Virus record (IMG/VR): IMGVR_UViG_3300037258_000352
Span: 40,287 to 104,286 of that record
DNA from: a virus
Length of the DNA stretch: 64,000 nt
Reading direction: 5' to 3' (one strand)
Shown: piece by piece, positions 752 to 49,029 of the stretch
Numbering within the stretch: position 1 is the stretch's first letter
How the letters are laid out: each line of letters starts with the position of its first letter
Translations under genes and position numbers: made by a program
Notes under the pieces: model-generated
Databases searched by the model: none
Told to the model about the DNA's origin: nothing
What the model saw: only the letters and a program-made list of their open reading frames with translations

Positions 752-817
752 CCTCCGTGTCCTCGTTCCGCTGTGCCTTACATCCCGTATAATCGCGAGG
801 GCCGGCCCGGGTGTTAC
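752..817 (-). promoter_or_regulatory. ECF (SigD/ShbA-type) promoter + extended SD
   Basis: GTAAC(817-813)-N17-CGAT(795-792); GACACGGAGG 761-752. Confidence 0.75.
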
Positions 818-845
818 ACCCTGACCGGCCCTGGATTCCCGACGC

Positions 846-1352
846 TCACACCGCTTCGGAGGGTAACCCCGGGCCAGCGTGTTCGGTGAGGTATTCCCGC
901 CACGTCCAATCCAGTCGCCCGTTCCACAGACCGTCCTCGACGGTGGCGGTGGAGAACAACGCCGCCCGGCTCGCTGCGACCCGCCCGACCCGGAAGTAGG
1001 CGCCCTGCGGGTCGAACCCTTCCACTCGCAACGCCCGCCCCGCCGCTTCGAGCGCTAGCCACGCGTCCCGCAGCTCCGGGTACGCGATGGCGACCACCTC
1101 CCGCCGGCGGTCGAGCTCGACACTGCGGCGCGCGGACCGGAGGGCCTGCTCGGCTTGGGCGTAGGTCAGGGTCCATCCGGTAGCGGCTTTGACGTGGGAC
1201 CGCCCGAGGGTCATCACCCGACCGTCGGGGTTGACGACGTCGTAGAGGTGTTTCAGTGGCCGGCCGCAGTGGTCACACGACCCCTCGGTGTGCCGGATCC
1301 CCGTCAAATACCAAGCGCTGGACCCGATCTGCGCTGCTGCGGTGGGGCTCAT
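846..1352 (-). CDS. Hypothetical protein, CxxC/His putative Zn-binding N-terminus
   Basis: CDHCGRPLKH...GRSH; preceded by cassette. Confidence 0.7.
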   Translation of the reverse strand: MSPTAAAQIGSSAWYLTGIRHTEGSCDHCGRPLKHLYDVVNPDGRVMTLGRSHVKAATGWTLTYAQAEQALRSARRSVELDRRREVVAIAYPELRDAWLALEAAGRALRVEGFDPQGAYFRVGRVAASRAALFSTATVEDGLWNGRLDWTWREYLTEHAGPGLPSEAV

Positions 1353-1357
1353 GTCGT

Positions 1358-1428
1358 CCTCCGTGTCTCCGGGCCGGTCCGCTCCGGCCCTCTGACCTGT
1401 CTATCGCCGCCCGGGCGCGGTTCGTTAC
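1358..1428 (-). promoter_or_regulatory. ECF promoter + hairpin + extended SD cassette
   Basis: GTAAC(1428-1424)-N17-CGAT(1406-1403); GGGCCGG-AGCGGA-CCGGCCC; GACACGGAGG 1367-1358. Confidence 0.8.
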
Positions 1429-1775
1429 CGGTGCCTAAACCCCCGCTTCACCAGCGCGCTGGTAATCACCTGGTCCGTCTGGACGGCTTTCCGGGCCGCC
1501 GCCAGCGTCGGGTAAGGGCCCTGCTCAGGGTCGGTGGACCAGCAGATCCCCACCCACCACTGACCCTTACCTCCGGTCGCTACTCCGTCGGCGTCGCGTT
1601 TGGTGACGTACCCGCCGGTAGTGGACTCCGTCCCGGCCTGTAGCAACACCACCTCGTACAAGGGGTAGTCGGCCCGGGACACGCTGAACTCCCTCACCCG
1701 CAACCGCAGCGCGACAGTGCGCGCCTTGCGGGTTTTCGTGGTGGACATGGCCTCTCCCTGGTCGTTGGTGGTCAC
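1425..1775 (-). CDS. Hypothetical protein
   Basis: ORF in leftward operon; TAA stop lies within the next GTAAC box. Confidence 0.6.
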   Translation of the reverse strand: MTTNDQGEAMSTTKTRKARTVALRLRVREFSVSRADYPLYEVVLLQAGTESTTGGYVTKRDADGVATGGKGQWWVGICWSTDPEQGPYPTLAAARKAVQTDQVITSALVKRGFRHR

Positions 1776-1924
1776 GAGTTGCCGACGATGGTCACAGCGC
1801 CGGTGATGATCAGGGCCGCGACCACGACGAGTACCGCACCGGTCACACCGACGAAAGCGGCACCACCGACAGCAACCGTGACCGTGAGCCCAAGCAGGAT
1901 CAAAATCACGGCCATCGCGTGCCT

Positions 1925-1994
1925 CCTCCGTGTCTGGAGCGGGTCCGCACCCGCCCTACACACCTTGTATCGCTACCCGCCCCGCCGGTGTTAC
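1925..1994 (-). promoter_or_regulatory. ECF promoter + hairpin + extended SD cassette
   Basis: GTAAC(1994-1990)-N17-CGAT(1972-1969); GGGCGGGT-GCGG-ACCCGCTC; GACACGGAGG 1934-1925. Confidence 0.8.
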
Positions 1995-2224
1995 AGCGCG
2001 CACTCCGCGACGATGGTCCGCATCGCCACCGTGACCGCGAGCCTGAACGCGTCGAGCTCGAACCTCGATCCCTCGATGACAACGTCGCATCCACCGGGAC
2101 CGATGAGGACCAGACCCCACCCATCGTTGGCGATCCGCGACCCGTCGGGCAGCACCTCCCCCGGGTAAGCGACCCGCACCGGCGCCGTCGCCGGCAGCGA
2201 CTCCACACGCTCAGCCATCACCAA
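1991..2224 (-). CDS. Hypothetical protein
   Basis: ORF in leftward operon; TAA stop within GTAAC box. Confidence 0.55.
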   Translation of the reverse strand: MVMAERVESLPATAPVRVAYPGEVLPDGSRIANDGWGLVLIGPGGCDVVIEGSRFELDAFRLAVTVAMRTIVAECAL

Positions 2225-3388
2225 TCACTCCGATCCGGTTAGGGGCAGCACACCAGGCACGGTGGGTGCGAGGTCGCGCCGCAGTAGCACTCCGTTGGTG
2301 CGTCGTACTCGGGGGCGGGCCCGTGGTCGGGTGCCACTGGGCCGTGGCCCTTGCGGATCACGTTGCCCCGCCCGGGGTCCTCCCCGTCGCACAACTCCCG
2401 GTCACCACCGACGCCAGCGACGACCGCCCGCCATGGGGCCTGGGTCGCGATCCGTTCCACCCCGACCCGGCACCGTTGGCAAGACCCGAGCAGCGCGTCC
2501 CCCGCTGGGTCCGGTGCTGGCGTCGGTCGTTGCCGTGGGCGAGGTCTGCTAGCGACAACCGCCCGGGCGAGACCGATCACGCCGGCGTAGAACTCATCGG
2601 CCGGGCCCATCACGCGGTCGGATCACTGATCAGGCAGAGCGGGCAGTAATCCACACCGACCGGCACCGGTGTACCGCACCCGACGCAGTCGGCCAGCTTC
2701 ACCCACAATCGACATAGGTATCTCACGCCCTGCTCCCTCCTTTGTTGGGTCGGATCTCGAAACCGGACATGGCTAGCGCGTGGTGCAGTGCGACGACGTC
2801 CTCATCGAACATCACCGGCCACGGGCACCCACCGAGATTGCACACCGTCATCCCGTATCGGCAGGCTCGGTGACCCGACCGGATTTGCTCCACAACCTGT
2901 CGCAGCGCGGTCAGGCCAGCGTCCCCGGACATCAGAGCCACCCGTTCGCGAATCCGACCAGGGCCAGTTCGCGGTGCATCTTCACGATGGGCTCGGCTGC
3001 GTGGTCGGGGAGGATCCACTCCAAACCGGTGGGATCTACGGTCCGCCAGGATTCGGGGATCGCGTCGGCGACCTGCTCGAAATTGCGTAACCACACCTCG
3101 TGAGTGGTCATTTGCTTCCGTCCTCCGTGTCCCAGCCGGGTCCGTCGCCCGGCGCTCGCTACCTGCGTCATCCCCTGGGGAGGATCCGTGTCCTCTCGCG
3201 GTACTCATTGCAAATCCCGATGATCTGAGCGTCGCTGAGGTGTTGGACCACGCCGTGATCGGTGACCAATCGCCCCGCCGACTGCAAGATCTGTCGCATG
3301 ACAGCCGGGACCACAACCCGAGCTTTCTTCCCTTCCAGCGTGCGGTAGGTGACGAGGTGCTCAACCTCAGTGTCCGTGGACATGGGGG

Positions 3389-3458
3389 CCTCCCTTGTCT
3401 CGGTGGCCCGGGTGGGGCCGCTCACTATCTGTATCGCCGCCCGGTGTGCGGGTGTTAC
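3389..3458 (-). promoter_or_regulatory. ECF promoter + variant SD
   Basis: GTAAC(3458-3454)-N17-CGAT(3436-3433); GACAAGGGAGG. Confidence 0.75.
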
Positions 3459-3689
3459 GCCGCCCACGCGAGCAGTCCCGCATACACTGCTTCCTCGACC
3501 AGTTCCGGGTCCGGGATGTGGCGGATGAACTCCCGCTTCGCGCCGTCGTCGTGTTTCCCACCCGACTCGACCCGGATCGACCCGTACCCCAACAGGCGTT
3601 GCACGTAGGTCTGCTCCACCGTCAAATCGGTGTGCTCGCCCCCTGCATCTCCAGCCAACTAGTCCACGTCGTCGTGCACACAACCTCAC
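3455..3689 (-). pseudogene. Truncated or frameshifted bacterial PH-domain (bPH_2-like) protein
   Basis: DLTVEQTYVQRLLGYGSIRVESGG...IRHIPDP resembles the C-terminal half of bPH_2; upstream RRGLVG is in another frame; in-frame TAG at 3661-3659. Confidence 0.45.
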
Positions 3690-4138
3690 CTCCACCTGTT
3701 AGCGCGGTCGATGGACGCACCAACAGCCTCATCAACCGTGGGGTAGATATGGATCCCACGACGGGTGGCCAGTTCCCGGAGATAGGCGCGGGCACGGTTT
3801 AAGTCCTTCAACTCGCGCCCTGTGATGGTCTGGCCGTCGATCACAGTTCCGTCGGTGATGTTGTGGATGACGAGCAGGGCGTCGTACGAGTTGACGGTGG
3901 CCACGAACTCGGTCGCCTCCAGCATCGACGCGATGGCCCGGGTCTGGTGGTCGATGACGAACAGCACCTCAACGGACGCGATCTTCGCGTCGGCTTCGGC
4001 CTTCACGAGTTCTGGGGACCAGTCCTCAACTTGAGGGTTGTAGTAGGACACCCCCGCTGCCTCTAGCAGGGGGATGGCGATGTCCGCGCGCCACGTGGTC
4101 GGGTTGCAGCTTCCGCCTAGGAACAGGTGTGGCCTCAT
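3686..4138 (-). CDS. Nucleoside 2-deoxyribosyltransferase-like (Raw-like) protein
   Basis: LFLGGSCNPTTWR...YYNPQVEDW...LFVID...SMLE; start set by SD at 4157-4148. Confidence 0.8.
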   Translation of the reverse strand: MRPHLFLGGSCNPTTWRADIAIPLLEAAGVSYYNPQVEDWSPELVKAEADAKIASVEVLFVIDHQTRAIASMLEATEFVATVNSYDALLVIHNITDGTVIDGQTITGRELKDLNRARAYLRELATRRGIHIYPTVDEAVGASIDRANRWR

Positions 4139-4147
4139 TCGTTTACT

Positions 4148-4254
4148 CCTCCGTGTCTGTGCTGGCCCGCACCAGCAACCCCCAGGGTAAACCTGGGTGG
4201 TCCCAGCGTCAACGCTTACAACCTGTGTATCGGCCGGGACCACCACCGCGTTAC
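4148..4254 (-). promoter_or_regulatory. Tandem ECF + housekeeping promoter, hairpin, extended SD
   Basis: GTAAC(4254-4250)-N17-CGAT; TTGACG(4212-4207)-N17-TACCCT; TGCTGG-TGCGGG-CCAGCA; GACACGGAGG. Confidence 0.8.
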
Positions 4255-4981
4255 ACCCGCAGGTCCTCCCCAGGACACCGAGCCCGGAGACCCACCGGGT
4301 AATACCACCGGATCGTCGCGAAATCCTCCCCGGGAGCCAACAGTCCCAGGCGGGGTGTGTGACACCGGGCGCACCGCTGCTCGTACTCGGCGTGGTCACC
4401 CAACACCCCACGCGCCCCGGGTTCCCACACATGCCCACACATGCCCACCCAGGTCCGAGACAGCGACCGGGGTCGCCGGGGCCGAGGGTGGAGCGCCCAC
4501 CGGCACGATCACATAATCCGGATCGAGGGTCACCCCGTGGGTGTCGTAGGCACCGCACCGCAACGGCCGGCGGATCACGACGCCACCCGCCGGATCCGCA
4601 CCACCACCGGCACGCCACCCGCACCGACCCGCCCTGCTCGTGGTGGACCTCGAAACTGTCATCCGGGAGCCGGCTCCACGCCCGCGCGGTGCTCCACCAT
4701 CAACACATCCACCACATGCCGAGTCAACCGCGGCGCGTACGGGTGCCCGTCATGCGGCGCGTCCCACGTCATCCACGGGATCCCCTGCTGCGCCTTCCCC
4801 AGGTCCGGGCGCAGCACGTGGGGGGCACCGCAAGTTCGGCATCCTGCGAGCCATTCCCACGGCACGTCCCCACCCAGCGTGAGGATCCCCACCTGGTGGG
4901 CGCTGCTTACCCCACTCGCGGCGGCCGGGCCCACCGCAGGTTCTGGGGTTCCGTCACCCACCGGGTGACTACCACCTGTCG

Positions 4982-5476
4982 TCACGATCCCGGCGGCGTC
5001 CCCAAGAGCCGCAACCCATCGACGTCGACGACGACCCGGACCCCCGGCGCCAACACCCCACCATTACGCGCGGCAGTCGCCGCCCCAGACGGCTCCAACC
5101 CCGCAGACACCAAGACGTGCATCAACTGCGCCACCTCCACCTCACCAGCCGGCCACGACCGTCGACGACCCGACCCGCAACCAGGGTTCGCGGCCTGCAG
5201 GTAACCGCTCCGCGTCCAGTAGTCCAACGTCCGGTACGTCAACCCCGGGACCGCCTCCTGAATCTCCCGGTACGACACCGGGGCCTCCGTCACGACGGAG
5301 ATGCACTTCTCGCACCGCCGGCCGCGCCCGGTGTCCCGCCACGGCACCACCCGAGCTGGTTCCCCGCACAGGGTTTTCGCGCCGTCCACCGCGTGCGCGA
5401 CAACGAATTCCGGGTCAGCGTGGCGACCTACCGTCTCCCGCCACACGACTGGTGTGTCCTCCCCTGGCCCGGGCAT
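4982..5476 (-). CDS. MerR-type HTH DNA-binding protein with N-terminal Zn-finger-like region
   Basis: GLTYRTLDYWTRSGYL...GSGRRRSW; H..C..CxxC upstream. Confidence 0.7.
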   Translation of the reverse strand: MPGPGEDTPVVWRETVGRHADPEFVVAHAVDGAKTLCGEPARVVPWRDTGRGRRCEKCISVVTEAPVSYREIQEAVPGLTYRTLDYWTRSGYLQAANPGCGSGRRRSWPAGEVEVAQLMHVLVSAGLEPSGAATAARNGGVLAPGVRVVVDVDGLRLLGTPPGS

Positions 5477-5965
5477 CAGCGGGACCCCGCGAGGAGGTCC
5501 CCCGAGTCACCGGAATGAGCTGGCCCACGCACCGGGGCGACTGGCTCATCCTTGGGTGGGTTCGGGCAGAACCCCGGCGTCGACCCACACGCCACCACCG
5601 GGCCCTCCCGCATCACCGCCCCCGCAGCGCCACCCACAACCCCCACCGCGAACGCCAACACCAGCGACACCACAAACACCACAACCTGCCGGTTCACCGC
5701 CACCGCGGACCTCCTAACCGACTGAGCAAATCCACGAGGGGACCCACCTCAGTCACCGGTACCGATATTTGCCTCGTCGGATCCGAGTCAAGGTAAAACG
5801 ACCAAGCGTCTCGTTCCGGGCTCCGGATCACGATCAGCGTCGATGGTGCCCCATCATGCCGCCGACCGGGTATCGCCACCCGAAGCTGCTCATTCTGCGG
5901 GACCTCCGCGTGCGGGCCAGGCAGGTCAACCAACTGCACGACACCTCCCCTATCGGAACGGACTG

Positions 5966-6208
5966 TCACCATCGGTGGGTGTCCGCTGTCCACCCGAAGA
6001 ACCGGGATAAACGACGCGGGTACCAACCTCGCCCACCACATTTACGGCACGCCCCCCGCACCACCACCCGGAAGATCAACGAAACCGCTTTCCGCCACCC
6101 AGCACCGTTGCACCGCAGGCACGCCTTTTCGGGACTTCGCCACGCGTTGTAGAGCATCGCCCCGGACCCACCGACAACGGCGACACCGGCCGCCTCAATC
6201 ACGATCAT
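5966..6208 (-). CDS. Small membrane protein with DnaJ-like CxxCxGxG zinc finger
   Basis: TM segment then CLRCNGAG / CRKCGGRG. Confidence 0.7.
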   Translation of the reverse strand: MIVIEAAGVAVVGGSGAMLYNAWRSPEKACLRCNGAGWRKAVSLIFRVVVRGACRKCGGRGWYPRRLSRFFGWTADTHRW

Positions 6209-6239
6209 GTCCACCGTGGACCTCCCGGGTCCCTCGTGT

Positions 6240-6405
6240 GTCACGGGCACCTCCCGTGACACCGTCACGGCTAGTCACGGGCCGTGTCACGGCGTCGTCA
6301 CGCGGGTTTGTCACGGGCTGTCACGCGTGACAAACCCGGTGACCTCACACCCACCGCCCGCACCGTCCCCCCCGACTGTCACGGCTGTCACAGGGCCCGT
6401 GTCAT
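6240..6405. repeat. GTCACG(G) direct-repeat array, candidate clt / TraB recognition locus
   Basis: Direct copies at 6240, 6264, 6274, 6286, 6297, 6310, 6320, 6378, 6387 and inverted copies at 6254, 6326, 6339; intergenic, downstream of traB. Confidence 0.75.
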
Positions 6406-6851
6406 ACCTTGCTCGCGGCCATACTCCTTCGCTGGTGCAACATCCGCGCACCGCGCTCCAGCCTATGGAAATTGCGCATCAACAGCGGGGTCACTTCCCG
6501 CCGAGCGGTACGTAAATCGCCCACACCGAACAGTCGCCTAAATTCGGACAGGTCATCACACCCGGAGTCGTCTCCCCATGACTGGGAGTACCTGACGTCG
6601 TAGCCGTGGACTTTGTGGAGCCACAGGGCGATGGCTTGGACCCCAGCGACGAGGACGAGCCCGTATTCGTGGGGTTTCGCGTCGCAGTCGTTCCCGGAGA
6701 GTTCCACTTTCCCTTCCGCGCCGCCGCGGATGGGTTGGACATGCGCTTTCCGGGTTCGGATTTTCAGTTCCGTCGCGGTCAACGCATGCCCAGCTTCGTG
6801 GATAGCGACACCCATGAGCAGATCAATCTCACGGGGTGGGGTGGGGGTCAT
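6402..6851 (-). CDS. Zinc metallopeptidase-like protein (HExxH; M41/M50-like)
   Basis: AIHEAGHA, LVAG, GCDDL motifs. Confidence 0.75.
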   Translation of the reverse strand: MTPTPPREIDLLMGVAIHEAGHALTATELKIRTRKAHVQPIRGGAEGKVELSGNDCDAKPHEYGLVLVAGVQAIALWLHKVHGYDVRYSQSWGDDSGCDDLSEFRRLFGVGDLRTARREVTPLLMRNFHRLERGARMLHQRRSMAASKV

Positions 6852-8293
6852 GCTGCTGCCTCATTCCCCCCGACCTGCGGGTTCCGCACCGGAATCCACC
6901 CACGGTCAGACTTCTCGATCCGACCGTCCTTGGCCATGTACTTATAGAGACTGGCCCTTGACCACCCGCAATCAGCGAGGAGGTTGATAAACGAGTTCGC
7001 TTCCAACCGGTCCGTGCCGCTGGCCAGGAACTCGGTGACTACTTCGGCGAGGACCTCCGCGAACTCCTCCGGGGTCAGACCGTCTTTCGGGGGGTCCCCG
7101 ATCATCCGGGCGACTGTGGGGTGGGTGGGGGCGTCCGGGTCAGCGAGTTCCGTGTCATCGTCAAGGTCGGATGCGTCGAGCTCGAAATCAACGTCTCCGT
7201 CGTCGTTGGTGACGATGATCCGGTCTCCGACCAGGGCCAGTTCCGACTCCTCAAGCTCGGGGTCGTCGTCGTAGAGCTCCTCGAGCGCGGCGAGGTACTC
7301 CGCGTCGTCGGGATCGAACCCATCGATTTCGTCGTCATCAGCGTCGACGTCTATGGGGGTCGGTGCGACGGCTTGCGCCGCAGCGACCAACGCCGACCCA
7401 GTCACAGGACCGGGGACGATCATCCCGTTCTGCTTGACTAGGTCCAACGGGGTGATGTGAGTGGTCCACAAGTCCCCCAGCGAATCTGCGGTGACCTGGC
7501 ACATGTCCCCGAGGTTCGCGGCGACATACGCGGCAGCCGACGCGAACGTGTGCTCACCGACCCCATCGGACCACGACCGGTGGGTCATCAACTTCTCCCG
7601 GACCGTCATCCCGGGACCGACGAGGTAGTGCATCCCGGGGTCGTCGGCGCCCCACTGCGACGGTTTCGCGCCGGCGTTGACGACTTCCTCTGGGAGGGAG
7701 TACTGGTCGTATTCGGAGTCGGTGATGCCGTACGCGCGGTAGGACCCCATCTGGTTCCGGACGGTGGTGGGGATGTTGTCCCAGGTTGGTTGCTGGATGC
7801 TGTACGTGAGTTGCCCACCAGCGGACCGCAACGCGACCGCGAGCCCGACGATCTCCTTGGACTCGGCCAGTCTCCACGCCTCTTCGATGTGGATCCGCAG
7901 GAACCGCAGGCTCGATGACGGGGCCCACTGCTTGAGACCTTCCCTCGAGAGGTGGCTGGTCCGCTCCGGCAGGGTGCGGTTGAGGAGTTGCCGCAGGAGC
8001 CGCTTCGCGCGACCGGGGTCGATCTCGTACATCTGCAGGCACCCAGCGACGTCTTGGTAGGACTGGATGCCTTTGACGGTGTCAATCAAAATCTGGTCGA
8101 TGCGCATCGCACCGCAGGTCAGCAGGACCGGGAGTTCCCCCCACGTCTTCCCGGAGCCGGTGGTCCCGGAGATCAGGCAGTGGACCCCACCCTCGGGTCG
8201 AGCGATTCTGAACAGGCCGGTTTCCCCGTCGGAGCGGCGGCTGACGGGGATCCCGGAGAACGGGTTCGCGCCCTTGAGGAGCTTGATCTTCAT
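6848..8293 (-). CDS. traB: FtsK/SpoIIIE-family TraB DNA translocase, motor plus C-terminal wHTH part
   Basis: Walker A GTTGSGKT, Walker B LRIHIEEA, RSAG..SIQQP, acidic linker, C-terminal SRASLYKYM; AGGAG SD before ATG 8293. Confidence 0.8.
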   Translation of the reverse strand: MKIKLLKGANPFSGIPVSRRSDGETGLFRIARPEGGVHCLISGTTGSGKTWGELPVLLTCGAMRIDQILIDTVKGIQSYQDVAGCLQMYEIDPGRAKRLLRQLLNRTLPERTSHLSREGLKQWAPSSSLRFLRIHIEEAWRLAESKEIVGLAVALRSAGGQLTYSIQQPTWDNIPTTVRNQMGSYRAYGITDSEYDQYSLPEEVVNAGAKPSQWGADDPGMHYLVGPGMTVREKLMTHRSWSDGVGEHTFASAAAYVAANLGDMCQVTADSLGDLWTTHITPLDLVKQNGMIVPGPVTGSALVAAAQAVAPTPIDVDADDDEIDGFDPDDAEYLAALEELYDDDPELEESELALVGDRIIVTNDDGDVDFELDASDLDDDTELADPDAPTHPTVARMIGDPPKDGLTPEEFAEVLAEVVTEFLASGTDRLEANSFINLLADCGWSRASLYKYMAKDGRIEKSDRGWIPVRNPQVGGNEAAA

Positions 8294-8295
8294 GA

Positions 8296-9123
8296 CTACT
8301 TCACTCCTACGAGCAGACCGGGCCACGGTTGGGCATCTTCGATGGGGTTGAGGTGCATGACGGTGACGTCACAGATTTGGGCGTTGCGGGACTTCGGGCG
8401 GGCGTAGACCTTCATTGATCCGGGGGGGAACCCGTGCGCGGACTCCACCGAAGCGATGTCCCGCTGGAACTCCAGCATCGTGTCCCCCGGGGCGAGCCGG
8501 AGTGTGCCTTCGCTGCGGAACTCCGACACCCGCCGCAACGCGAGGGACGCCCCGTCGTGGCCGGCCATCTTCATGGGGGTGTCGGGTGGGTTCTGGGCGG
8601 CGAGGATCTCCGCGAGCTCCGCGACCCGATGCCTAGCGTTGATCCTGGTGTTCCAGATCGCGGCCAACGCGGACCCACCAGCGAAGAACGTCGCGATGGT
8701 GAACCCGTGGGTGGAGAACACCCACCCCGGGTTACCGGTGGTGAAGGTGATGAACCCGGTGATGGTGCACAGCGACAGCCACGCCCCCCCGAACGCGGTG
8801 GTGGCTACCCCGTGCCAGCGGGCGGTCCCGGTGTGGGACCGTTGGGTTTGCCACACCGAGTACGTCATCCCGATCGTCGCGACCATGATCAGCGCCACGG
8901 TCCCCGCCCGGCTCCACGCGGTTTCAACGAACGCGTGGAGCACGGTCCCCGCTAGCCAGAACAAGCCGAGGACGACCCACGGGATGAAGTGGACGGCGTG
9001 GTCGTGCAACGCGTGCCCGACCACGCCTCCGGATCCGGTGCGGGCACCCGTCCCAGCGCTGGGACCGCGCGGAGGAGCCGGCGGGCGTGTCTGCCGGGTG
9101 CTCGACCTGAATCCCTTACCCAT
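8296..9123 (-). CDS. Membrane protein equivalent to the N-terminal membrane domain of TraB
   Basis: About 4 TM helices; ends NPIEDAQPWPG, resembling the motif that precedes the motor in actinomycete TraB. Confidence 0.7.
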   Translation of the reverse strand: MGKGFRSSTRQTRPPAPPRGPSAGTGARTGSGGVVGHALHDHAVHFIPWVVLGLFWLAGTVLHAFVETAWSRAGTVALIMVATIGMTYSVWQTQRSHTGTARWHGVATTAFGGAWLSLCTITGFITFTTGNPGWVFSTHGFTIATFFAGGSALAAIWNTRINARHRVAELAEILAAQNPPDTPMKMAGHDGASLALRRVSEFRSEGTLRLAPGDTMLEFQRDIASVESAHGFPPGSMKVYARPKSRNAQICDVTVMHLNPIEDAQPWPGLLVGVK

Positions 9124-9138
9124 TTCCGTTCCCCTGTC

Positions 9139-9531
9139 TTACGCGGCGTTACGCCGACGGTTGCCGCCGTTGTTCTGATTATTGTTCTGTCCACCCTGAC
9201 CGTTGTTCTGGCCCTTCCGGGAACGGCTCGGGACGAACACGGCGCTGAGGATCCCTTCCGCGTTGCCCATCATTTTCGAGCAATGCGACATCAGCAACGC
9301 GGACCGGTGAAGGTCCCGAGCGATTCGAGCTGCCGCTTGCTCCTTCTCTTTCTGCGACATCAACGCCCCCCGCGACGGGGAATGAGCGAGACGCTTTTTA
9401 GCGACCCGGGAAATGATTTGCATCTCCATTCCAGCGTTGAGGAACAAGTTAGCCATGTCGTGGATCCATGCGCGCATCGCACCGGGGTCACGCAATACTG
9501 CTTCGTCCGCTGTGCGCCTCGTGATACCCAT
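9139..9531 (-). CDS. Putative TraA-like plasmid transfer protein
   Basis: Helical basic protein immediately upstream of traB; position typical of AICE traA. Confidence 0.55.
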   Translation of the reverse strand: MGITRRTADEAVLRDPGAMRAWIHDMANLFLNAGMEMQIISRVAKKRLAHSPSRGALMSQKEKEQAAARIARDLHRSALLMSHCSKMMGNAEGILSAVFVPSRSRKGQNNGQGGQNNNQNNGGNRRRNAA

Positions 9532-9575
9532 TGCCTTTTACCCTCTCTCGATTTCCTTGGTGTGCCTGACTTCGA

Positions 9576-10079
9576 TCAGCCGTTGCAGCCGGCGCAATGG
9601 ACGGGGATCCCCGCGCAACCCTTCCCGCTGCGGGACATGGCCAGCAGCATCACCAGCGCGAGGACAATCCCTAACCCGACTGTCCCCTCAGCGACCGCGG
9701 CGCCGTGGACCCCGAACCACGTTCCGATCCCGTGGATGATCCGGTAGAGCCCGTACATTCCCAGCGACGCGCTGCCGGCGATCAGGGCGTATTTCACGAT
9801 CGGGCCGGCGGCGATGACGTAGTCGATGGCTTCGACTTGGGATCCGTCGGGGATCCCGATGGGGATGGTGGGTGCGCCTGGGGTGACGAACACCCGGTAG
9901 GTGACCTGCCCCGGGGTGACCGGGGTGAGTTGCTCCGGGGTGCGGACCGCGACACCCATCTCCTGGTACCGGCCCGCCGTGTACATCACGTCAGCGAGGT
10001 AGCCGTTCAGGACCCGTTCCTCGATCTGGGTGATCGTGGTGGTCGGGTGGGTGGTGGGGATGAGCTGGGTGGGTGACAT
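9576..10079 (-). CDS. Spd-like membrane protein of transfer module
   Basis: 2 TM helices and C-terminal CAGIPVHCAGC. Confidence 0.55.
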   Translation of the reverse strand: MSPTQLIPTTHPTTTITQIEERVLNGYLADVMYTAGRYQEMGVAVRTPEQLTPVTPGQVTYRVFVTPGAPTIPIGIPDGSQVEAIDYVIAAGPIVKYALIAGSASLGMYGLYRIIHGIGTWFGVHGAAVAEGTVGLGIVLALVMLLAMSRSGKGCAGIPVHCAGCNG

Positions 10080-10103
10080 GGCGGGGTCTCCGGGGTGGGT
10101 GGG

Positions 10104-12192: not shown

Positions 12193-12257
12193 CCGGTGTG
12201 GTGTGGGGCGGTCCCTTCGCGAGACGCGGGCGAGGGGACCGTCGCCGTTTCCGGGGT

Positions 12258-12361
12258 GTAACGCCGGCTGGGGTGTGGCCGATACAGGGGTGTAAGCGTT
12301 GACACCCGCACACCACAGGTTTACTCTTGAGAGGTCGGTGCGGACCGACGGGACACGGAGG
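12258..12361 (+). promoter_or_regulatory. Tandem ECF + housekeeping promoter, hairpin, extended SD
   Basis: GTAAC(12258)-N17-CGAT; TTGACA(12299)-N17-TACTCT; GTCGG-TGCGGA-CCGAC; GACACGGAGG 12352. Confidence 0.85.
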
Positions 12362-41468: not shown

Positions 41469-42227
41469 TCACCCGACGCCACCGAACGTGAGGACACCCT
41501 GCGACAGTCGGGCTGTCACCGCCCGTTCACACTGCGCTTCCCGCTTCTCGAACCCGATCGCACGCCGGCCCGTCGCTCGAGCTGCGACCAGCGTGGAGCA
41601 GCTACCAGCGAAGCAATCAAGGATCAGACCACCCAGTGGACAGCCGTATTCAATCAGAGGCTCAAGGATCCCCCGTGGCTTCTCAGTCTCGTTAATAGCG
41701 GTGCCGTGCATGGATCGTGAGTAGATGACCGAGCCCATCATGCGAGGACCACCGTTGTGACTCACATAGGAACCAGAGTCGATGTGCCCGGTGTGGGCCG
41801 GTTGTGCCTTGCGACGGACCTGCTTCTTGACTGCATCCTGCGTCGTTGGGGCGAGATGGTGAACGTCCGACCACGGACCTCGGTACCAGTGCGTTGCGTG
41901 CTCATGCATTCGCCGGAATCGGTCAGCGTGGAACGTTGACCCGTTGTGCTTCTCCCACACCACGTCCTGCGAGAACTTCCAGCCCGTGAACTCATCCCGC
42001 CTATCGAGGAACATCCGCATCGACCCGAAACACCACATCGAGTTCCCCGGGATCAGCGACGGCCACCCAGCGGGCCACCGGTCCCAATCCAGACTCGTCT
42101 CCCCGTACGGGGGATCACACACGGTGAGGTCCGGGACGATCCCCAACTCGGGGAGGATGTCCCGGAAGTCCCCGCAGTACAACGTGACCTCGTCGTCGGC
42201 GTAGTAGGGCTCCGGGCGGGTCACCAT
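41469..42227 (-). CDS. DNA N6-adenine/N4-cytosine methyltransferase (beta-type)
   Basis: DPPY, TEKP, LDCFAGSCST. Confidence 0.9.
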   Translation of the reverse strand: MVTRPEPYYADDEVTLYCGDFRDILPELGIVPDLTVCDPPYGETSLDWDRWPAGWPSLIPGNSMWCFGSMRMFLDRRDEFTGWKFSQDVVWEKHNGSTFHADRFRRMHEHATHWYRGPWSDVHHLAPTTQDAVKKQVRRKAQPAHTGHIDSGSYVSHNGGPRMMGSVIYSRSMHGTAINETEKPRGILEPLIEYGCPLGGLILDCFAGSCSTLVAARATGRRAIGFEKREAQCERAVTARLSQGVLTFGGVG

Positions 42228-44614
42228 GGTTGCCCGATCCCTATCCGGGCGTACTTCCCCACGAACGACAGCCGCACGTCCCCCGTCGGCCCGTTCCTAT
42301 GTTTGTCGACGATCACCGTGATGTCCTGCGGTTCGTCATCACGACGCCACAGCAACAGGATCTTCGACGCGTTGTGACCCACCGCGCGGGACTCCCGCAG
42401 GTCCTCCTTCGTTGGCCGGCCACCGATCCGTTTCGTCGGCTCCGAGTTGAGCTGATGCAACACCACGATCGGGCACCCGAGCTGCTTCGCGAGCTCCTTA
42501 AGCTCCCACGACAACCGCGACAACTGCTCCTGCCGGGACACCTTCGGATCCGCCGGCGACATCAACGACAACTGATCCACCACCACCAACCCCGGGTGCC
42601 CCAACTGCTGACACCGCGCCCGGATCTGCGCCACAGACAACCCGGGGGTGTCATCCACCCACAAGGGCCACTCCTGAATCCGCTCCGCAGCTTTCTTCGC
42701 CCGGTACTGATCTTCCGGTCCGAGCTGGTGTTCCATCAGATCCGACAGGGGGACGGTGCCAACGTCCGCGACCCACCGGGCCATGACCTCATCCGTCGTC
42801 ATTTCCAGGGTGAACATCACCGTCCGGACCCCGTCTTGGGCCGCGGCCCGCGCGATCGACCCCCCGAACAGGGAGTTGTGCGTAGGGATCATCGTCGGCC
42901 CTGCGAGGTAGAGGTGATCACTGTTGTCGACCTCGATACACCGCACGGGGACGCTTGCCACTGGCCGGACCGCGCGAATCATCCTGCGGGATGACCGCTG
43001 TGGGGCTCTCTGCCGCTCTACTTTCCTGGTTAGTTTGAAGACTTTGTCTCCGGGCGTAAAATTGATCATGTAGCAGGTTGAGGACTTCTCCGTCCTGCCT
43101 TTGACCCGTTTGGTTCGCATGGTGGCTCGGTACCCAAGACTCAGGATCAGTTCTAGAGTTCCCTCGGCCAGCACCTTGCTGGTGACAGCGAACTGGACCT
43201 TTCCTAGTTTGCAGACATACCCGTCGGTGTCTAGTAGCCCGGCTAGTAGCTCCCGGCGTTGTCCTACAGACGCCCGCAGGTAGGCGACCGGAATGTGTTT
43301 GTTCATCACTAAACCGGCGCGCCTTAGATCTGTGATCAGTCCATAGACTGTCCTATGGGGACACGTCCTCACTGCTTTCCCGATGGGTGGCCCTACTTCA
43401 TAACCGCAGAACGAGATGTTGTCGAACACTTCTGGATCAGCGCCGCACATCGTCCCATGCAAGGAATCACCGTCTCCGAGCCAGCAACCCAACACATAAG
43501 GATCTATCGGGAGATCTTCCGACTCGGGTAACTCCAACGGAGCTGCCAGCTTGACCGAGTGGTTGACGTATGTCCCGAATCGGAGCGTCGCCATGATCTG
43601 CTCCGTCGTCACCACTGAGGGATGGATCTGCTTCCACCGCTGGTCGATGGAATAAGGGGAGGTCCTGGCCAGGGTGTTATCAACGTGGGTGCATCGTGAA
43701 GATCGTGTCTCCGTCAGCCACTGGTGATCTGCGTCCGCTACGAGCACTGATCCGTCAGAGAACTCCACCTCATAGCAGGGACGACCCGTCATCACCGGGG
43801 TCGCGTTCGTGACCGTGGTCGGTTTGCCGTCCGCTCCGAACACTTGGTCGCCTACCTGAACCGTGCCCATGGTCGTCCAACCTGTCGGCGTGGCCAGGGG
43901 CGTATCCAGAGCGAGAGCCTTCCCGACGCTGGTGTTGGCTGCGACGACGATCAGCTCACCGATCCGCAACCCCCCGGAGAGTTGCTCATCGAGCGCTGGC
44001 CACGACGTTTTCACGACCCCCACCGGAGGCCGGTCCAACGACTCAATGAACGACCACACCGCCGGCTCCGCATGCACCAGCGTCTGCGACTGGTCCCGGG
44101 ACGTGGTGGCGTCGGTGAACTCCCGGCGCGCGAAGTCCAACACCTCATCCAGCGACGCGCCTTTCGACCCGTGCTCCGCGAGTTGAGTGATCCGCAAACC
44201 GGCCTCCCGGACCCGCCGCAGCACAGCTTTCGCGGCGACGATCTCCGCGTAGTAGGTGACGTTCGCGGCGGTGGGAGTGGCTTGCATCAGGGTGTGCAGG
44301 TACGGGCCGCCCCCCACCCGCAGGAGCTCACCACGCCGGTCCAACTCCTCCGACACGGTCACAGGGTCCGCGGGTTCCCCGCCCGCCCACAACGCCGTCA
44401 CAGCAGCCCAGATTTGGCTGTGACCGGGCCGGTAGAAGTCTTCCGGGGTCAACACCCCGGCGACGTCGTCCAACGCCCTAAACGACACCAGAACCGACCC
44501 GAGGACCGCTTGCTCCGCGTGGAGGTCCTGCGGTGGCTGGTTGTCCAGCTCGGGTTCGCCCTCCTCGCTCGGGGCGTCGTCCCATCCGGAGGTGTCAGCG
44601 GACACCGGGAACAC
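42221..44614 (-). CDS. dnaB: Replicative DNA helicase DnaB with intein
   Basis: PPQDLHAEQAVLG, AANTSVGK|S, FTLEM, VVDQL, QLN, DLRES, KHRNGP. Confidence 0.95.
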   Translation of the reverse strand: MFPVSADTSGWDDAPSEEGEPELDNQPPQDLHAEQAVLGSVLVSFRALDDVAGVLTPEDFYRPGHSQIWAAVTALWAGGEPADPVTVSEELDRRGELLRVGGGPYLHTLMQATPTAANVTYYAEIVAAKAVLRRVREAGLRITQLAEHGSKGASLDEVLDFARREFTDATTSRDQSQTLVHAEPAVWSFIESLDRPPVGVVKTSWPALDEQLSGGLRIGELIVVAANTSVGKALALDTPLATPTGWTTMGTVQVGDQVFGADGKPTTVTNATPVMTGRPCYEVEFSDGSVLVADADHQWLTETRSSRCTHVDNTLARTSPYSIDQRWKQIHPSVVTTEQIMATLRFGTYVNHSVKLAAPLELPESEDLPIDPYVLGCWLGDGDSLHGTMCGADPEVFDNISFCGYEVGPPIGKAVRTCPHRTVYGLITDLRRAGLVMNKHIPVAYLRASVGQRRELLAGLLDTDGYVCKLGKVQFAVTSKVLAEGTLELILSLGYRATMRTKRVKGRTEKSSTCYMINFTPGDKVFKLTRKVERQRAPQRSSRRMIRAVRPVASVPVRCIEVDNSDHLYLAGPTMIPTHNSLFGGSIARAAAQDGVRTVMFTLEMTTDEVMARWVADVGTVPLSDLMEHQLGPEDQYRAKKAAERIQEWPLWVDDTPGLSVAQIRARCQQLGHPGLVVVDQLSLMSPADPKVSRQEQLSRLSWELKELAKQLGCPIVVLHQLNSEPTKRIGGRPTKEDLRESRAVGHNASKILLLWRRDDEPQDITVIVDKHRNGPTGDVRLSFVGKYARIGIGQPW
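42875..43918 (-). mobile_element. Class 3 intein (348 aa) with LAGLIDADG homing endonuclease in the DnaB P-loop
   Basis: Starts ALALDTP, HQW (block B), VRC (block F), PTHN|S; LGCWLGDG and LAGLLDTDG motifs. Confidence 0.92.
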
Positions 44615-45265: not shown

Positions 45266-46204
45266 TCAGTAGTTCATCGGCGCGTCATACGCGTCGTCCG
45301 CGAGGTGCTCGAAATGCCGCGCGTAACCTCCGCTACCCCGCCTATCGCTGCCCGAGCGCCCAGCGTTACCGACCGTGGCCGGCTCGTCCTCCCACCGCTG
45401 CCCGTTGAGCCACGTCGTCGCGTGCGCCACGTAGGACCCCGTCCGGTGCAGCTCCACGACGTACCGATCCAACCCAGCCATGATCACATCCGGGTCGGCT
45501 GCCTTGATCGCTTTCGGCCACGCCTTCCACGCGTCCTTCTTGGCCGTCTTTCGGGGGTAAACCGCCCAGAACTTGGCGAAGGTTTCCTCGGCTTTGCGGT
45601 TGATCGGGACAACCGGCCTAGACGAGGTCGGTGAGGGCATCCCGTCCAGCGTTCCCTGTCCGTCCTGGCTGGGGTTGGCCTGCGCCGCGCGCGCGGGTGC
45701 GCCTACGCGTGTGTGCGCCCGCGCCCGTGGAGAGATGATCTCTTCGTTAGAAGAGATCAAGGGGTTAGTGGTCGGTTCCACTGGTCGGTTAACTTCAAAA
45801 GAGTCTTTGGCCGGCTCAGCAGGTGAGCCGGGGGGGGCCTGCAGGTGAGCCGGGGGGGGCTCAGGGATGGACCGGGGGGGGCTCACCTTTGGTGGGAGCG
45901 TCGAAATGTGGAAGTTCCACCCGGCGAGCCCCCCGTCACTTCTGGTCCGGGCGGTCTTCGCGACGACGTTGATCTCTTCCAGTTTCACCATCGCTCGTTT
46001 GTAGGAGGAGACGCTGAGGCCGGCTCGTTCAGCGACCGCTTCTCGGCTGGGGAAGCAGTCACCGCCGCTGTCGGCGAAGCTGCGGAGCGCGATGTAGACG
46101 CGGAGACTGGCGCCGTCGAGGTCGTATTGGAGTAGCCAGATCGGGATGATCGAGTACGGGCCGATGTCTGTGGTGACCCGGGAGTTCTCTTGCTGTTCGC
46201 TCAT
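45266..46204 (-). CDS. Phage replication initiator (N-terminal wHTH)
   Basis: CFPSREAVAERAGLS; F..FW.VYPRK..K; WLN..RWED. Confidence 0.85.
   Translation of the reverse strand: MSEQQENSRVTTDIGPYSIIPIWLLQYDLDGASLRVYIALRSFADSGGDCFPSREAVAERAGLSVSSYKRAMVKLEEINVVAKTARTRSDGGLAGWNFHISTLPPKVSPPRSIPEPPPAHLQAPPGSPAEPAKDSFEVNRPVEPTTNPLISSNEEIISPRARAHTRVGAPARAAQANPSQDGQGTLDGMPSPTSSRPVVPINRKAEETFAKFWAVYPRKTAKKDAWKAWPKAIKAADPDVIMAGLDRYVVELHRTGSYVAHATTWLNGQRWEDEPATVGNAGRSGSDRRGSGGYARHFEHLADDAYDAPMNY
45740..45886. repeat. Iteron-like repeats plus AT-richer tract, probable replication origin
   Basis: CCGGGGGGGGC at 45828, 45850, 45872 (22-bp period); GCAGGTGAGCCGGGGGGGGC twice; TTAACTTCAAAAGAGTCTTT adjacent. 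Confidence 0.75.
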
Positions 46205-46884
46205 CGGGAGCCACCGCCGACGACGTTGGTCCATTCGTGATCGAACTCGATGCGGATCCCGGACCCGTGTTGATTTCTAGGCGCGTTCACTCCGTGGTGG
46301 TATGCGCTGACGGCAGGACCGATCAGTTCGAGTGGATCTTCGGACCCGAAGTCGAACCACTCACCGTGTGCTCGATAGCGAGCCAGAGTGCAATGCAGGT
46401 GCGCCTCCAGGGCGTATCCCCCGGGTGTAGTCCACTGAACTTCTAGCGGAGCCGGCGACATGTTTCGGATCGAACGGAGCCGCGCCGACACGTTCTTGGT
46501 GCGTCCGATCTTCACAAGGCGGCTGGTTGATGAACCGATTAGGTAGACGACCTCTCCGGCCACGGGAGAGCGGGGGGCGGTCACCTTCTGCGCCCCTCGC
46601 GTCCCGGTCAGTGCGCTAGCTAGTAGCGATGGGATCGTCCACGAGATGTGTCCCGCAGGATGCTCGTCTACTTCGAGTTCTCCCAGCGTGACGAGGTTGT
46701 TCACGGATTGTCGAGTTGTGGCGAGATCTAGCCGGGCTAGGTCAGCTACTTGCTGGTAGCTGCCTGCGACTCCGGAGTGGTCGTCGCCACCTCCGCTGCA
46801 CTCGGTCAAGCAGAGGAAGACGAAAACGTCGGTGCTGGTGGCAGCAGAGTTCCGCCAGACCCATGCGGTGGTGCGGGCGCTCAT
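46201..46884 (-). CDS. wHTH + GIY-YIG (T5orf172-like) protein
   Basis: WVWRNS N-terminus; VYLIG...VKIGRT...RL...E..LH...GEWF. Confidence 0.85.
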   Translation of the reverse strand: MSARTTAWVWRNSAATSTDVFVFLCLTECSGGGDDHSGVAGSYQQVADLARLDLATTRQSVNNLVTLGELEVDEHPAGHISWTIPSLLASALTGTRGAQKVTAPRSPVAGEVVYLIGSSTSRLVKIGRTKNVSARLRSIRNMSPAPLEVQWTTPGGYALEAHLHCTLARYRAHGEWFDFGSEDPLELIGPAVSAYHHGVNAPRNQHGSGIRIEFDHEWTNVVGGGSR

Positions 46885-46975
46885 GACGCCACCGTCAGCG
46901 AGGAGGCGTTGGATGGGATGGTCGTGGACATGTGGTACGTTTCCTTTACTCAGTTCTCATTGATTGGCATGGATG

Positions 46976-47001
46976 GAAGCGGCCCCGTGGCAGGGCCGCT
47001 T
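46976..47001 (-). terminator. Hairpin downstream of sigma gene
   Basis: AAGCGGCCC-TGCCACG-GGGCCGCTT. Confidence 0.6.
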
Positions 47002-47017
47002 TCGTCGTTTCAGGGGC

Positions 47018-47668
47018 TCACGCCACCACCCCCACGTCCTCGTGGAGCCATGACGCAGCGTCGTCGGGGAGTAGCTGAGCGAGACGCCTGATCGCCCTGT
47101 GCTGCAGCGCTTTCACGGCACCGTCGTTGCGGTTCAATGCCGCTGCGGTCTCCGTGACGGACAGGCCAGCGTAGAACCGTAGGCCGATGCAATCCCGCTG
47201 GTCTCTGGGTAGTTTCCGGAGACACGTCGTGAGGTGCTGGGCGTAGAACTTGGTCATGATCCGGCTGATGGCTTCGCCGGCGGTGTTTTCTTCCGCGTAC
47301 CGTTCGGGGACTTTGTCGACGGTCCGGTCCCAGCGGTGTCTCGCTGATCGGACGTGGTCGAGGAGGAGGTTCCGGGCGATGGTGACGACCCACGCACCGA
47401 ACTCTTTCCCGTTGCCACGGTCAGCGACGGATTGGATCCTCCGCAGTGCGCGGCACCACACTTCACCGGCCATTTGCTCGACGGTGGAGCGGTCGCGGTC
47501 GTCGAGCCGGTAGAGGAGGTACCGGTAGATCATCAGGTGGTGTCGTTCGTACAGGACGCTGAAAGCGTCGCGGCCTGTGTCGCCGCCCTGCTGGGCGAGG
47601 GTGACGAGTTCCCAGTCCCCGAGTGGGGCGTTGTCCAGTACGTTTACTGTCGATGGCTGAGCGGTCAT
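47018..47668 (-). CDS. ECF sigma factor, BldN-like
   Basis: RALRRI...FGAWVVTIARNL..DH..S.R.R; LRFYAGLSVTETA...NDGAVKALQHRAIRRLAQLLPDD closely matches BldN as recalled. Confidence 0.9.
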   Translation of the reverse strand: MTAQPSTVNVLDNAPLGDWELVTLAQQGGDTGRDAFSVLYERHHLMIYRYLLYRLDDRDRSTVEQMAGEVWCRALRRIQSVADRGNGKEFGAWVVTIARNLLLDHVRSARHRWDRTVDKVPERYAEENTAGEAISRIMTKFYAQHLTTCLRKLPRDQRDCIGLRFYAGLSVTETAAALNRNDGAVKALQHRAIRRLAQLLPDDAASWLHEDVGVVA

Positions 47669-48207
47669 CGAACGATGCTCCTTCTGTGTCGGTTCTCCCC
47701 GCGGGCAGCGGGCCGGTATCGGTTAGGGGTTTCGAGGGGGACCAGTCGCGAGCTGGTCCCCCTCGCATGTGTCGGGATGGTTACCGCCCGTGGTTGGGAC
47801 GGTGAGCCCGGTCATGGAGTGGTGGGCCCGGGCGGTGTGGTGCCGGCCGTAGATGCACGTGGACCCGTCGGGGAGTTTGAAGTCGCAGTACTCCCCGCGC
47901 ATGGTGGGGGTGCCGTGCCCGAGTCGGGCCAGCAGCACGGTGATCACGGTCGCGGCGCGTTCGGCGTTCCATGCGGGGGTGGTTTTGTCGTCGGGTGAGT
48001 CCCACGCGTTGTCGAGGTCGTACAGCCACGAGGAGATGTCCTCGGCGAGGTCCGCTCGGGTAGCGGGGTCGATGAACGGGCTGAACGCGGCGGTGGCCAC
48101 TTCCTGCCCGGTCGGGCATTCCCACGCGTCGCCGTGGACGCGTGACTTGACGTGACCGAGCGCGCGGCACACCGCGGCGGTGGCCTGCTGGTGGATGTGC
48201 CGGGGCC

Positions 48208-48879
48208 TCACCATGCCACCTCGTGCTCAACGGTCCACCGCTGGTAGGTGGGCAGGGTGTAGGTCACGTCGGGGCAGGAGCGGGACAGGTCCACTGTGCT
48301 CGGGAACACGGCGACGTTGTCGGGGAAATCGGTGGCCACGGGGACAGGGTCCTCGCTGGGGTTGATCAATAGCAGCTCACCTAACGCGATGAGTTCCACC
48401 ACGGCGTCGGCGATGGGTTCAAGGTCGGCTTCGGTGTGCTGTTGGCCGCGTGCGACGTTGTCGCTGGTGTTGTTCCACAGGTACGTGTATCCGGGCCACG
48501 GCGCTGGTTCGAGGTCGGCCGCTTCGTCCCACGCGAGGTTCAACAACACTTGGCGGGCCAGGCCAGTCGCGCGGGAGTAGGCGAACACCCACTCGAACAC
48601 GTTCAGCGGCAGCCCAGTGCGGGCCTCGATCTGACGGTCGGCGAGGGTTTCCGCAGTGCACAGGATCGTGCCGTGGTGTTCGTCGTGGCGGTAGCAGTCG
48701 AGGCCCGGGTCCCACACCCAGTACCGCTGGAGGTGGTCGGTGTGTGTTTGGGGCCAGATAGCCGTAACCCCGGACTGGTCGGGGGACTGGTCCGGGGTTC
48801 GTGCTGATGCGGTGGCCCCAACGACGGGACGACAACCGTCGCTCAGCGTACCGGATGGTGGGGGGGTCGTGTGGGGCAT
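48208..48879 (-). CDS. Protein with initiator-type wHTH domain
   Basis: WVFAYSRATGLARQVLLNLA...ELIALGEL. Confidence 0.65.
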   Translation of the reverse strand: MPHTTPPPSGTLSDGCRPVVGATASARTPDQSPDQSGVTAIWPQTHTDHLQRYWVWDPGLDCYRHDEHHGTILCTAETLADRQIEARTGLPLNVFEWVFAYSRATGLARQVLLNLAWDEAADLEPAPWPGYTYLWNNTSDNVARGQQHTEADLEPIADAVVELIALGELLLINPSEDPVPVATDFPDNVAVFPSTVDLSRSCPDVTYTLPTYQRWTVEHEVAW

Positions 48880-49003
48880 GTGTGCCTCCTGGTTGTCGTG
48901 TTGTTCGGCCCTGCGGTCGAATTGCGTCGTTGGGTGGTTCCCCCCGGCGGGCATCACTCCGCAGGTTTGGTCACGTTACACCGTGAAGTCTTCCGCTGGG
49001 TAT

Positions 49004-49029
49004 ATCGCCCGCGAAGTTTTGGACGTTAC
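49004..49029 (-). promoter_or_regulatory. ECF promoter heading the leftward sigma/replication block
   Basis: GTAAC(49029-49025)-N17-CGATA in the divergent intergenic region. Confidence 0.7.

Follow-up and report, generated by a model that had tools for sequence, protein, structure and literature searches.

Putative SigD-type promoter regulon with a soluble RsdA-like protein and a BldN-like sigma factor in an uncultured actinophage

In the usual description, phages start transcription with the housekeeping sigma factor of the host and then turn to a sigma factor or a polymerase of their own. Anti-sigma factors of the T4 AsiA type are small phage proteins that inactivate a host sigma, namely the housekeeping one, and reprogramme transcription; they are not known to be homologs of host anti-sigma factors. 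In actinobacteria, extracytoplasmic function (ECF) sigma factors of the SigD/ShbA class (ECF40) use the promoter consensus GTAAC-N17-18-CGAT in Mycobacterium tuberculosis and Corynebacterium glutamicum and CGTAAC-N16-CGATGA in the case of Streptomyces ShbA (PMC12019637), with a -35 element GTAAC[A/G] and a -10 element GAT described for C. glutamicum SigD (PMC6338062). The cognate anti-sigma factor RsdA is removed by MarP and Rip1 via intramembrane proteolysis on envelope stress (PMC11175481). BldN, a developmental ECF sigma of Streptomyces, acts on the promoter of rsbN (PMC4255298).

Here we analyze a viral DNA stretch of 64,000 nucleotides (the window), which comprises bases 40287-104286, the final 64 kb, of IMG/VR record IMGVR_UViG_3300037258_000352. 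The source record of 104,286 bp has 127-bp direct terminal repeats and is rated complete; G+C content is ~66%. The window contains repeated GTAAC-N17-CGAT sites together with genes for an RsdA-like protein and a BldN-like sigma factor. An original prediction, made from the letters of this DNA, had proposed that host SigD fires accessory phage genes until a phage anti-sigma factor shuts it down and leaves control to the phage sigma; alternatively, the phage sigma itself would read these promoters. The SigD/ShbA consensus it had named is confirmed by the literature cited above. We favor, at a probability of about 0.6, a reading in which the sites would be read by a SigD/ShbA-type (ECF40) sigma of the host and the soluble RsdA-like protein would close a negative feedback, the phage sigma not being the reader. 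Literature searches yielded no paper on phage RsdA homologs or on phage regulons using SigD-type promoters, in agreement with the earlier remark that no such circuit was known to have been described for an actinophage.

SigD-type sites in the phage and in other phages

GTAAC-N16-18-CGAT occurs 13 times in the window versus 0.83 expected, a count that none of 100 shuffled sequences reached. The whole genome harbors 18 sites, 17 of them with a 17-nt spacer and one with a 16-nt spacer; spacers of 15, 18, or 19 nt are absent. Sixteen of the 18 start with GTAAC[A/G], and GTAACC is confined to two doubtful ones, the N16 variant at window position 27167 and an in-gene site at genome position 22989. 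Convincing sites of the form GTAAC[A/G]-N17-CGATA number 12 in the window and 16 genome-wide, and the aligned consensus of the genome sites reads g-GTAAC[A/G]cc...g/cCGATAcA. Genes were called with a self-trained codon-usage model. The sites are essentially intergenic (15 of the 17 N17 sites, at an intergenic share of 12.8% of the genome; P=4e-12), and 17 of the 18 have the same orientation as the next gene. At about 10 sites CGAT lies 48-56 nt ahead of the start codon, and at seven the TAA of GTAAC is the stop codon of the upstream gene. Variants with one mismatch reside mostly within coding sequence and lack the ATACA extension; the promoter class is therefore sharply bounded, with the variants looking like noise. 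When gapped dyads were counted without bias in 70 upstream regions, GTAAC-N17-CGAT ranked at the top (12 regions), and no second motif class emerged. All 12 sites of the original prediction were recovered, whereas the one at 45344-45369 (-) had been missed; their co-oriented placement at gene boundaries, and a frequency that is far from equal in coding and intergenic DNA, were borne out. The claim that the virion region is free of sites holds for the window but not for the genome, in which five further sites lie outside the window, including two good ones in the virion module (genome positions 17609 and 20150).

To assign the sites to a promoter class, cellular loci were consulted, from which a BldN-type consensus was derived empirically. 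In ~40 metagenomic loci with the nearest cellular BldN-type sigmas, among the matches listed, GTAAC[C/T]-N16-CGTTG follows the sigma gene directly and in the same orientation. We take this element as BldN-type because it is located where rsbN is expected; it substantiates the earlier statement that BldN combines the GTAAC -35 with a CGTTG-type -10. About 10 of these loci contain a separate GTAAC[A/G]-N17-CGATA element on the opposite strand, and therefore both classes coexist and can be distinguished in these bacteria. The phage sites agree with the latter class in -35 extension, spacer, and -10. In 35 of 37 loci of Pseudonocardiaceae and related bacteria, an ECF sigma gene has full-length rsdA directly behind it and GTAAC[G/A]-N17-CGATga ahead of it; three of these rsdA-adjacent sigmas were scored and belong to the ShbA/SigD family (NF007230; 275-302 bits, cutoff 209). 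The likely host family therefore owns a sigma reading exactly this promoter class. By homology, the sole basis of this assignment, the host is likely a Pseudonocardiaceae/Pseudonocardia-type actinobacterium.

Compared with cellular SigD/ShbA promoters (M. tuberculosis and C. glutamicum SigD regulons, Streptomyces hrdBp1), the phage sites share a -35 GTAAC[A/G], a -10 CGAT, a spacer within 16-18 nt (17 in the phage) and the occurrence of the same element ahead of sigD(-rsdA). They differ in the -10 extension, which is ATACA in the phage and GA(C) in cells, and in their targets, ~16 copies heading replication and accessory operons of the phage, whereas cellular SigD regulons comprise envelope and stress genes, or hrdB. 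In silico, the motif is real, its placement is that of promoters, and its promoter class is identified: the GTAAC[A/G]-N17-CGATA sites are most likely SigD/ShbA-class (ECF40) promoters.

The studied phage (G000) was compared with five other phages, G006, G001, G002, G004, and G005. G006, a complete phage of 115,285 bp, was recovered by an IMG/VR scan for the extended promoter alone; it has 36 proteins in common with the studied phage and a syntenic replication arm. Seventeen SigD-type sites are present in G006, against none in a reversed-pattern control, and 16 of them are intergenic (P=3e-14), with the same ~50-nt leader. At least four orthologous operons harbor a site in both phages, with wholly different spacers and the two hexamers alone kept. 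A full ECF sigma was not detected in G006, where neither TIGR02937 nor sigma region 4 gave a match even at E<=1. G001 and G002 contain seven and eight sites, respectively, and both carry a BldN-like sigma, the gene of which lies on the strand opposite to the motif-driven genes, without a site upstream. BldN-like sigmas are likewise present in G004 and G005, which have no site. The four phages with the motif (G000, G006, G001, and G002) also have RsdA-like genes, and none was found in the motif-free G004 and G005. Of the promoter/anti-sigma/sigma triad, G006 has the promoters and the RsdA-like gene, but no full sigma. As the system recurs in several uncultured actinophages of 100-120 kb, it would represent a lineage strategy rather than a one-off. 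Phage phiC31, considered as a precedent on account of its unusual early promoters, was rejected, as it contains no copy of the motif.

The cellular loci offered a separate observation. In L020, L022, L027, L028, L029, and L033-L036, a SigD-type element is situated between bldN and the BldN-type promoter, just past the stop codon on the opposite strand and pointing back into the bldN-like gene; it may be a sign that, in some Pseudonocardiaceae, SigD drives antisense transcription of bldN.

A soluble RsdA-like protein and a BldN-like sigma factor

The RsdA-like gene (31174-31440, -) encodes an 88-aa soluble homolog of the SigD-binding domain. It is the second gene of the operon headed by the SigD-type promoter at 31702-31727 (-), which comprises gpX, the RsdA-like gene, and 30063-31100 onward; promoter position (18335-18360 in G006) and layout are kept in G006, the phage devoid of a full sigma. 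Taken singly, the sequence matches PF16751 with E=4e-4, below the Pfam cutoff. All six members of the RsdA-like family match PF16751, however, with a best value of 2e-9, and the family profile aligns to M. tuberculosis RsdA (PDB 3VEP chain X, residues 17-80) with E=3e-6, so that the domain noticed earlier at this position is real at the profile level. Its nearest cellular relatives are from Pseudonocardiaceae/Pseudonocardiales (45-55% identity), followed by Amycolatopsis and Actinomycetospora. Scanning viral sequences with the alignment of the RsdA-like family gave no match.

Cellular RsdA (Rv3413c; PF16751; 3VEP, 3VFZ) is a protein of ~270-410 aa with a transmembrane segment at about residues 78-115 and an extracytoplasmic domain. 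The phage protein shares with it the homologous N-terminal sigma-binding domain and expression from a SigD-type promoter, as for cellular rsdA. Unlike RsdA, it is phage-encoded, has only 88 aa and lacks both the transmembrane segment and the extracytoplasmic domain; maximum 19-aa hydropathy is 0.75 in the studied phage and 0.89 in G006 versus 1.9-2.6 in cellular RsdA, and both phage proteins display an Arg-rich C-terminal tail where the segment would start. Judged by its sequence, the 88-aa protein is a domain homolog of RsdA and not a full-length member. It would bind and inhibit host SigD, and the shut-off of SigD by a phage anti-sigma factor, as originally predicted, is supported in silico. 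Without a membrane anchor, the protein should therefore escape the MarP/Rip1 release that activates SigD. It resembles T4 AsiA as a small phage protein proposed to inactivate a host sigma, and differs from it as a captured host ECF anti-sigma domain that would target the sigma reading the phage's own promoters. A different architecture was observed in G002 (89732-90802, -; L208 691-1761) and its G001 counterpart, which encode a membrane-anchored RsdA-like protein, in which an RsdA-type domain at the N-terminus is followed by a transmembrane segment and a C-terminal domain of ~190 aa.

The sigma gene (47018-47668, -) encodes a protein of 216 aa with sigma-2 and sigma-4 domains. Family and structure matches both point at BldN (TIGR02952, E=1.4e-37; best PDB match 6DXO, the BldN structure, E=2.6e-32), confirming the earlier assignment, with a TIGR02952 score of 129 bits that stays below the equivalog cutoff of 206.45. 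The ShbA/SigD model NF007230 is matched with E=2.4e-23 and 83 bits, below its cutoff of 209. The closest relatives form a small metagenomic clade (55-86% identity), followed by BldN-type sigmas of Pseudonocardiaceae (46-52%); the best match in a deposited phage is from Streptomyces phage Gilgamesh (29%). A viral scan using the phage sigma alone found nothing, the matches listed from a metagenome scan were mostly cellular bldN loci, and an RsbN-like gene adjacent to the sigma gene was not identified. The sigma gene is transcribed, after 48208-48879 and 47723-48214, in an operon behind the SigD-type promoter at 49004-49029 (-), so that, as had been stated, RsdA-like and sigma genes are both preceded by such a promoter. 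An imperfect second copy, GTAAC-N18-TGAT, is located at 48950-48979 (-), 50 nt downstream of promoter 49004.

Residues contacting the promoter were then compared, with the column of RpoE-Lys56 anchored by E. coli rpoE from an annotated record. A basic residue at this position goes along with T at -11, and its loss with A (PMC7776599); in C. glutamicum, SigD Ala60 versus SigH Lys53 tells GAT from GTT (PMC6338062). Arg occupies this column in the phage sigma and in every BldN-type sigma, whether from cells or phages (alignments A2, A4), whereas Ala is found in the rsdA-adjacent Pseudonocardiaceae sigmas and also in ShbA of 9ISN. Moreover, the phage sigma and cellular BldN proteins have identical sigma-4 recognition helices. 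Cognate GTAAC[C/T]-N16-CGTTG promoters were not detected in the studied phage above shuffled controls, using a position weight matrix from 28 cellular promoters (best score 15.8; shuffled maxima 13.7 on average and up to 19.1; true sites >=20.7), and GTAAC-N16/17-CGTT was not enriched in the five other phages. The phage sigma is therefore probably a product or cargo of the SigD-type regulon and not its reader. Phage-encoded homologs of host sporulation sigmas are known from Firmicutes (PMC9429907); like these Bacillus phage sigmas, the protein described here resembles a developmental sigma of the host, and cognate promoters for it are not evident in the phage genome. In filamentous actinobacteria, development helps contain phage spread (PMC10117723). 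By analogy, BldN-type promoters of the host are the likeliest guess for its targets, and the gene offers a testable case of a phage-borne developmental-type sigma without promoters of its own type on the phage.

Reader of the SigD-type promoters

A host SigD-type reader is favored because of the match to cellular sigD-rsdA promoters, the Ala/Arg difference between host and phage sigmas, the absence of a full sigma from G006, and the lack of BldN-type promoters. The opposite view, in which the phage BldN-like sigma reads the sites either from the start or in a hand-over, after a host SigD kick-start and removal of SigD by the RsdA-like protein, is in our estimate unlikely. The BldN family has the GTAAC -35 in common, and G001 and G002 carry both the motif and a BldN-like sigma, but in these two phages the sigma gene does not stand behind the motif, G004 and G005 possess the sigma without the motif, and G006 maintains its 17 sites with no full sigma at all. 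The Arg in the K56 column and the sigma-4 helix, which is that of cellular BldN proteins with CGTT promoters, speak against both self-reading and take-over as first proposed. Furthermore, no sigmaA-type promoter serves the sigma operon; the consensus SigD-type site and the imperfect copy are the only ones on its strand, and a host sigma must therefore read the motif first anyway.

Several points nevertheless weigh against the reading by host SigD. The sigma gene of the studied phage does stand behind a SigD-type motif, as expected of an autoregulated ECF gene. The phage sigma clade shows a 2-aa insertion in the specificity (L3) loop, an alteration that could change -10 reading, and C. glutamicum SigH, with Lys at the K56 position, weakly reads SigD promoters (PMC6338062), meaning that a basic residue does not abolish the use of GAT promoters. 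The K56 rule is statistical and derived from modelling, and cross-reading by the phage sigma is conceivable. G006 harbors an open reading frame (ORF) of ~78-91 aa with sigma region 2 only (G006:100273-100473, -; L160 1468-1743). RsdA matches of G001 and G002 are below the Pfam cutoff, and the AlphaFold model of the 88-aa protein is helical with low confidence (predicted local distance difference test, pLDDT, 63). The independent phage lineages are few, as G000 and G006 are related and G001 and G002 near-identical. Support is wholly computational, with the host placed by homology; the identity of the reader, the capture of SigD by the 88-aa protein, and the time course are proposals. The region-2-only ORF of G006 adjoins a WhiB-like gene, and this WhiB-like gene has a 72%-identical counterpart in the studied phage (genome 39600-39830).

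Another host ECF sigma of overlapping specificity, distinct from the partner of RsdA, might read the sites instead, the RsdA-like protein then targeting, for instance, the phage sigma or serving only to shut off host defence. The weak activity of SigH on SigD promoters exemplifies such overlap, and the phage CGATACA differs from CGATGAC of cellular sigD promoters. As -35 extension, spacer, and CGAT core match the autoregulatory sigD promoters of the likely host family, and as the RsdA-like gene tracks the motif and not the phage sigma, we consider this less likely still. Very improbable, finally, is that the motif is no promoter but a regulator binding site or a mobile repeat cassette. Many sites do share a module of leader, hairpin, and GACACGGAGG, resembling repeated regulatory cassettes of other phages; yet the motif is bipartite with a fixed, unconserved 17-nt spacer, strictly oriented, and at a fixed distance from the start codon, is identical to an experimentally defined promoter class, and keeps just the two hexamers at orthologous sites.

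With host SigD as the reader, SigD-RNA polymerase would start early and middle phage transcription from ~16 promoters. The soluble RsdA-like protein produced from promoter 31702 would accumulate and sequester SigD, and this capture would act as a negative feedback, switching off the SigD-type phage promoters and blocking the SigD regulon of the host. SigmaA-like promoters, which are few and of which one heads an operon toward the terminase, would remain usable. SigD-type sites head nearly all leftward non-structural units, namely replication, nucleotide and DNA modification, many small genes, and the phage sigma gene. The idea that host SigD fires the accessory genes is thus supported in silico as far as a host reader is concerned, but the term accessory proved too narrow, since DnaC-like/DnaB, exonuclease, and methylase genes are included. 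The bulk of non-structural transcription appears wired to an ECF stress sigma of the host, unlike the usual phage scheme, and its shutdown apparently relies on a pared-down version of the anti-sigma factor of that host. If true, promoter class and soluble cognate anti-sigma would form a compact natural pulse generator, and the arrangement would provide ready-made orthogonal regulatory parts and amount to a new way of taking over an actinobacterial host.

A broader scenario, which we put forward tentatively, ties the early phage programme to envelope stress of the host. Envelope damage on entry would trigger proteolysis of membrane RsdA and free SigD, upon which the ~16 phage promoters would fire. 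The soluble RsdA domain, which cannot be cleaved, would subsequently bind SigD again, so that early transcription would cease and the envelope-stress response of the host would fall silent, and the captured BldN-like sigma might redirect developmental (BldN-regulon) genes of the host.

Transcription units, leaders, and gene layout

The genome is organized in leftward and rightward arms. Leftward genes occupy window positions 1-10970 and 22111-48879 (-), with DnaB, a DnaC/IstB-like ATPase, methylases, exonuclease, and the sigma gene in the arm at 22-49 kb. Rightward genes occupy 11138-21582 (+) and the region from 49294 (+), which includes the large terminase gene (58204-59967) and runs on across the terminal repeat into the virion genes (genome 1-35.8 kb). 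A megablast of 20 kb against deposited phages gave no match, and a terminase search revealed no close relatives.

In the first leftward arm, SigD-type promoters are located at 792-817 (-; GTAACA-N16-CGAT, 52 nt ahead of gene 465-740), 1403-1428 (-; 51 nt ahead of gene 846-1352), 1969-1994 (-; 54 nt ahead of gene 1772-1915), and 3433-3458 (-; 50 nt ahead of gene 3168-3383). Gene 1425-1748 is next after 1772-1915, and its G006 ortholog also stands behind a site. The promoter at 4229-4254 (-) is followed by a sigmaA-like promoter at 4184-4212 and heads the deoxyribosyltransferase-like gene 3686-4138; the one at 12258-12283 (+) is likewise followed by a sigmaA-like promoter (12299-12327) and heads gene 12372-12794. 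In the second leftward arm, the promoter at 26296-26321 (-) lies 48 nt ahead of gene 26021-26248, and the doubtful N16 variant at 27167-27191 (-; GTAACC, CGATTAAC) has a 45-aa ORF, 22 nt downstream, as its sole follower. The promoter at 34168-34193 (-), whose position is kept in G006 (20858-20883), drives a three-gene operon (33792-34115, 32761-33795, and methyltransferase-like 31967-32761). A further one at 36014-36039 (-) is found 82 nt ahead of a DUF4190 membrane-protein gene (35312-35932). Site 45344-45369 (-) lies inside the 3' end of gene 45266-46234, 96 nt ahead of the DnaC-like gene, which is followed by DnaB, and has its position kept in G006 (34329-34354).

The actinobacterial sigmaA-like pattern TTGAC-N-TAnnnT has six matches in the genome, five of them intergenic and each with a co-oriented gene 45-154 nt downstream; a scan for E. 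coli-type sigma70 promoters found nothing. One match, TTGACG-N16-TACGGT at 49113-49140 (+), heads the rightward operon toward the terminase. The two tandem pairs of SigD-type followed by sigmaA-like promoter (4184-4254, -; 12258-12327, +) have a 13-nt string, TGTAAGCGTTGAC, in common and face outward from a block at 4.3-12.2 kb that holds an FtsK/TraB-like gene (6848-8293).

Leaders of ~50 nt (window 244-49179; for example after 1403, 1969, 3433, 26296, 31702, and 34168) contain a short hairpin with a variable stem and a constant GCGG/ACGG in the loop and, after it, the Shine-Dalgarno context GACACGGAGG, which is common to G006 too. The two strong SigD-type promoters outside the window belong to a gene-poor island of atypical composition with small ORFs within the virion module (genome 17609-20700; L210); both have ACACCTCATGT after CGAT, and Rfam and tRNA scans of this island gave no match. 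A tRNA-Gly gene (anticodon TCC) at 57608-57680 (+) lies between rightward genes, shortly ahead of the terminase region. The DnaB-like helicase (42221-44614, -; 797 aa) carries a LAGLIDADG/Hom_end homing-endonuclease domain inserted at residues 449-525, probably an intein. In L124, an 11.8 kb viral fragment (G008) of 54% G+C, seven near-identical copies of GTAACA-N-CCTAGAATCCGAT are present on one strand within 5 kb; a phage whose host has a lower GC content seems to employ the SigD-type promoter class as well.

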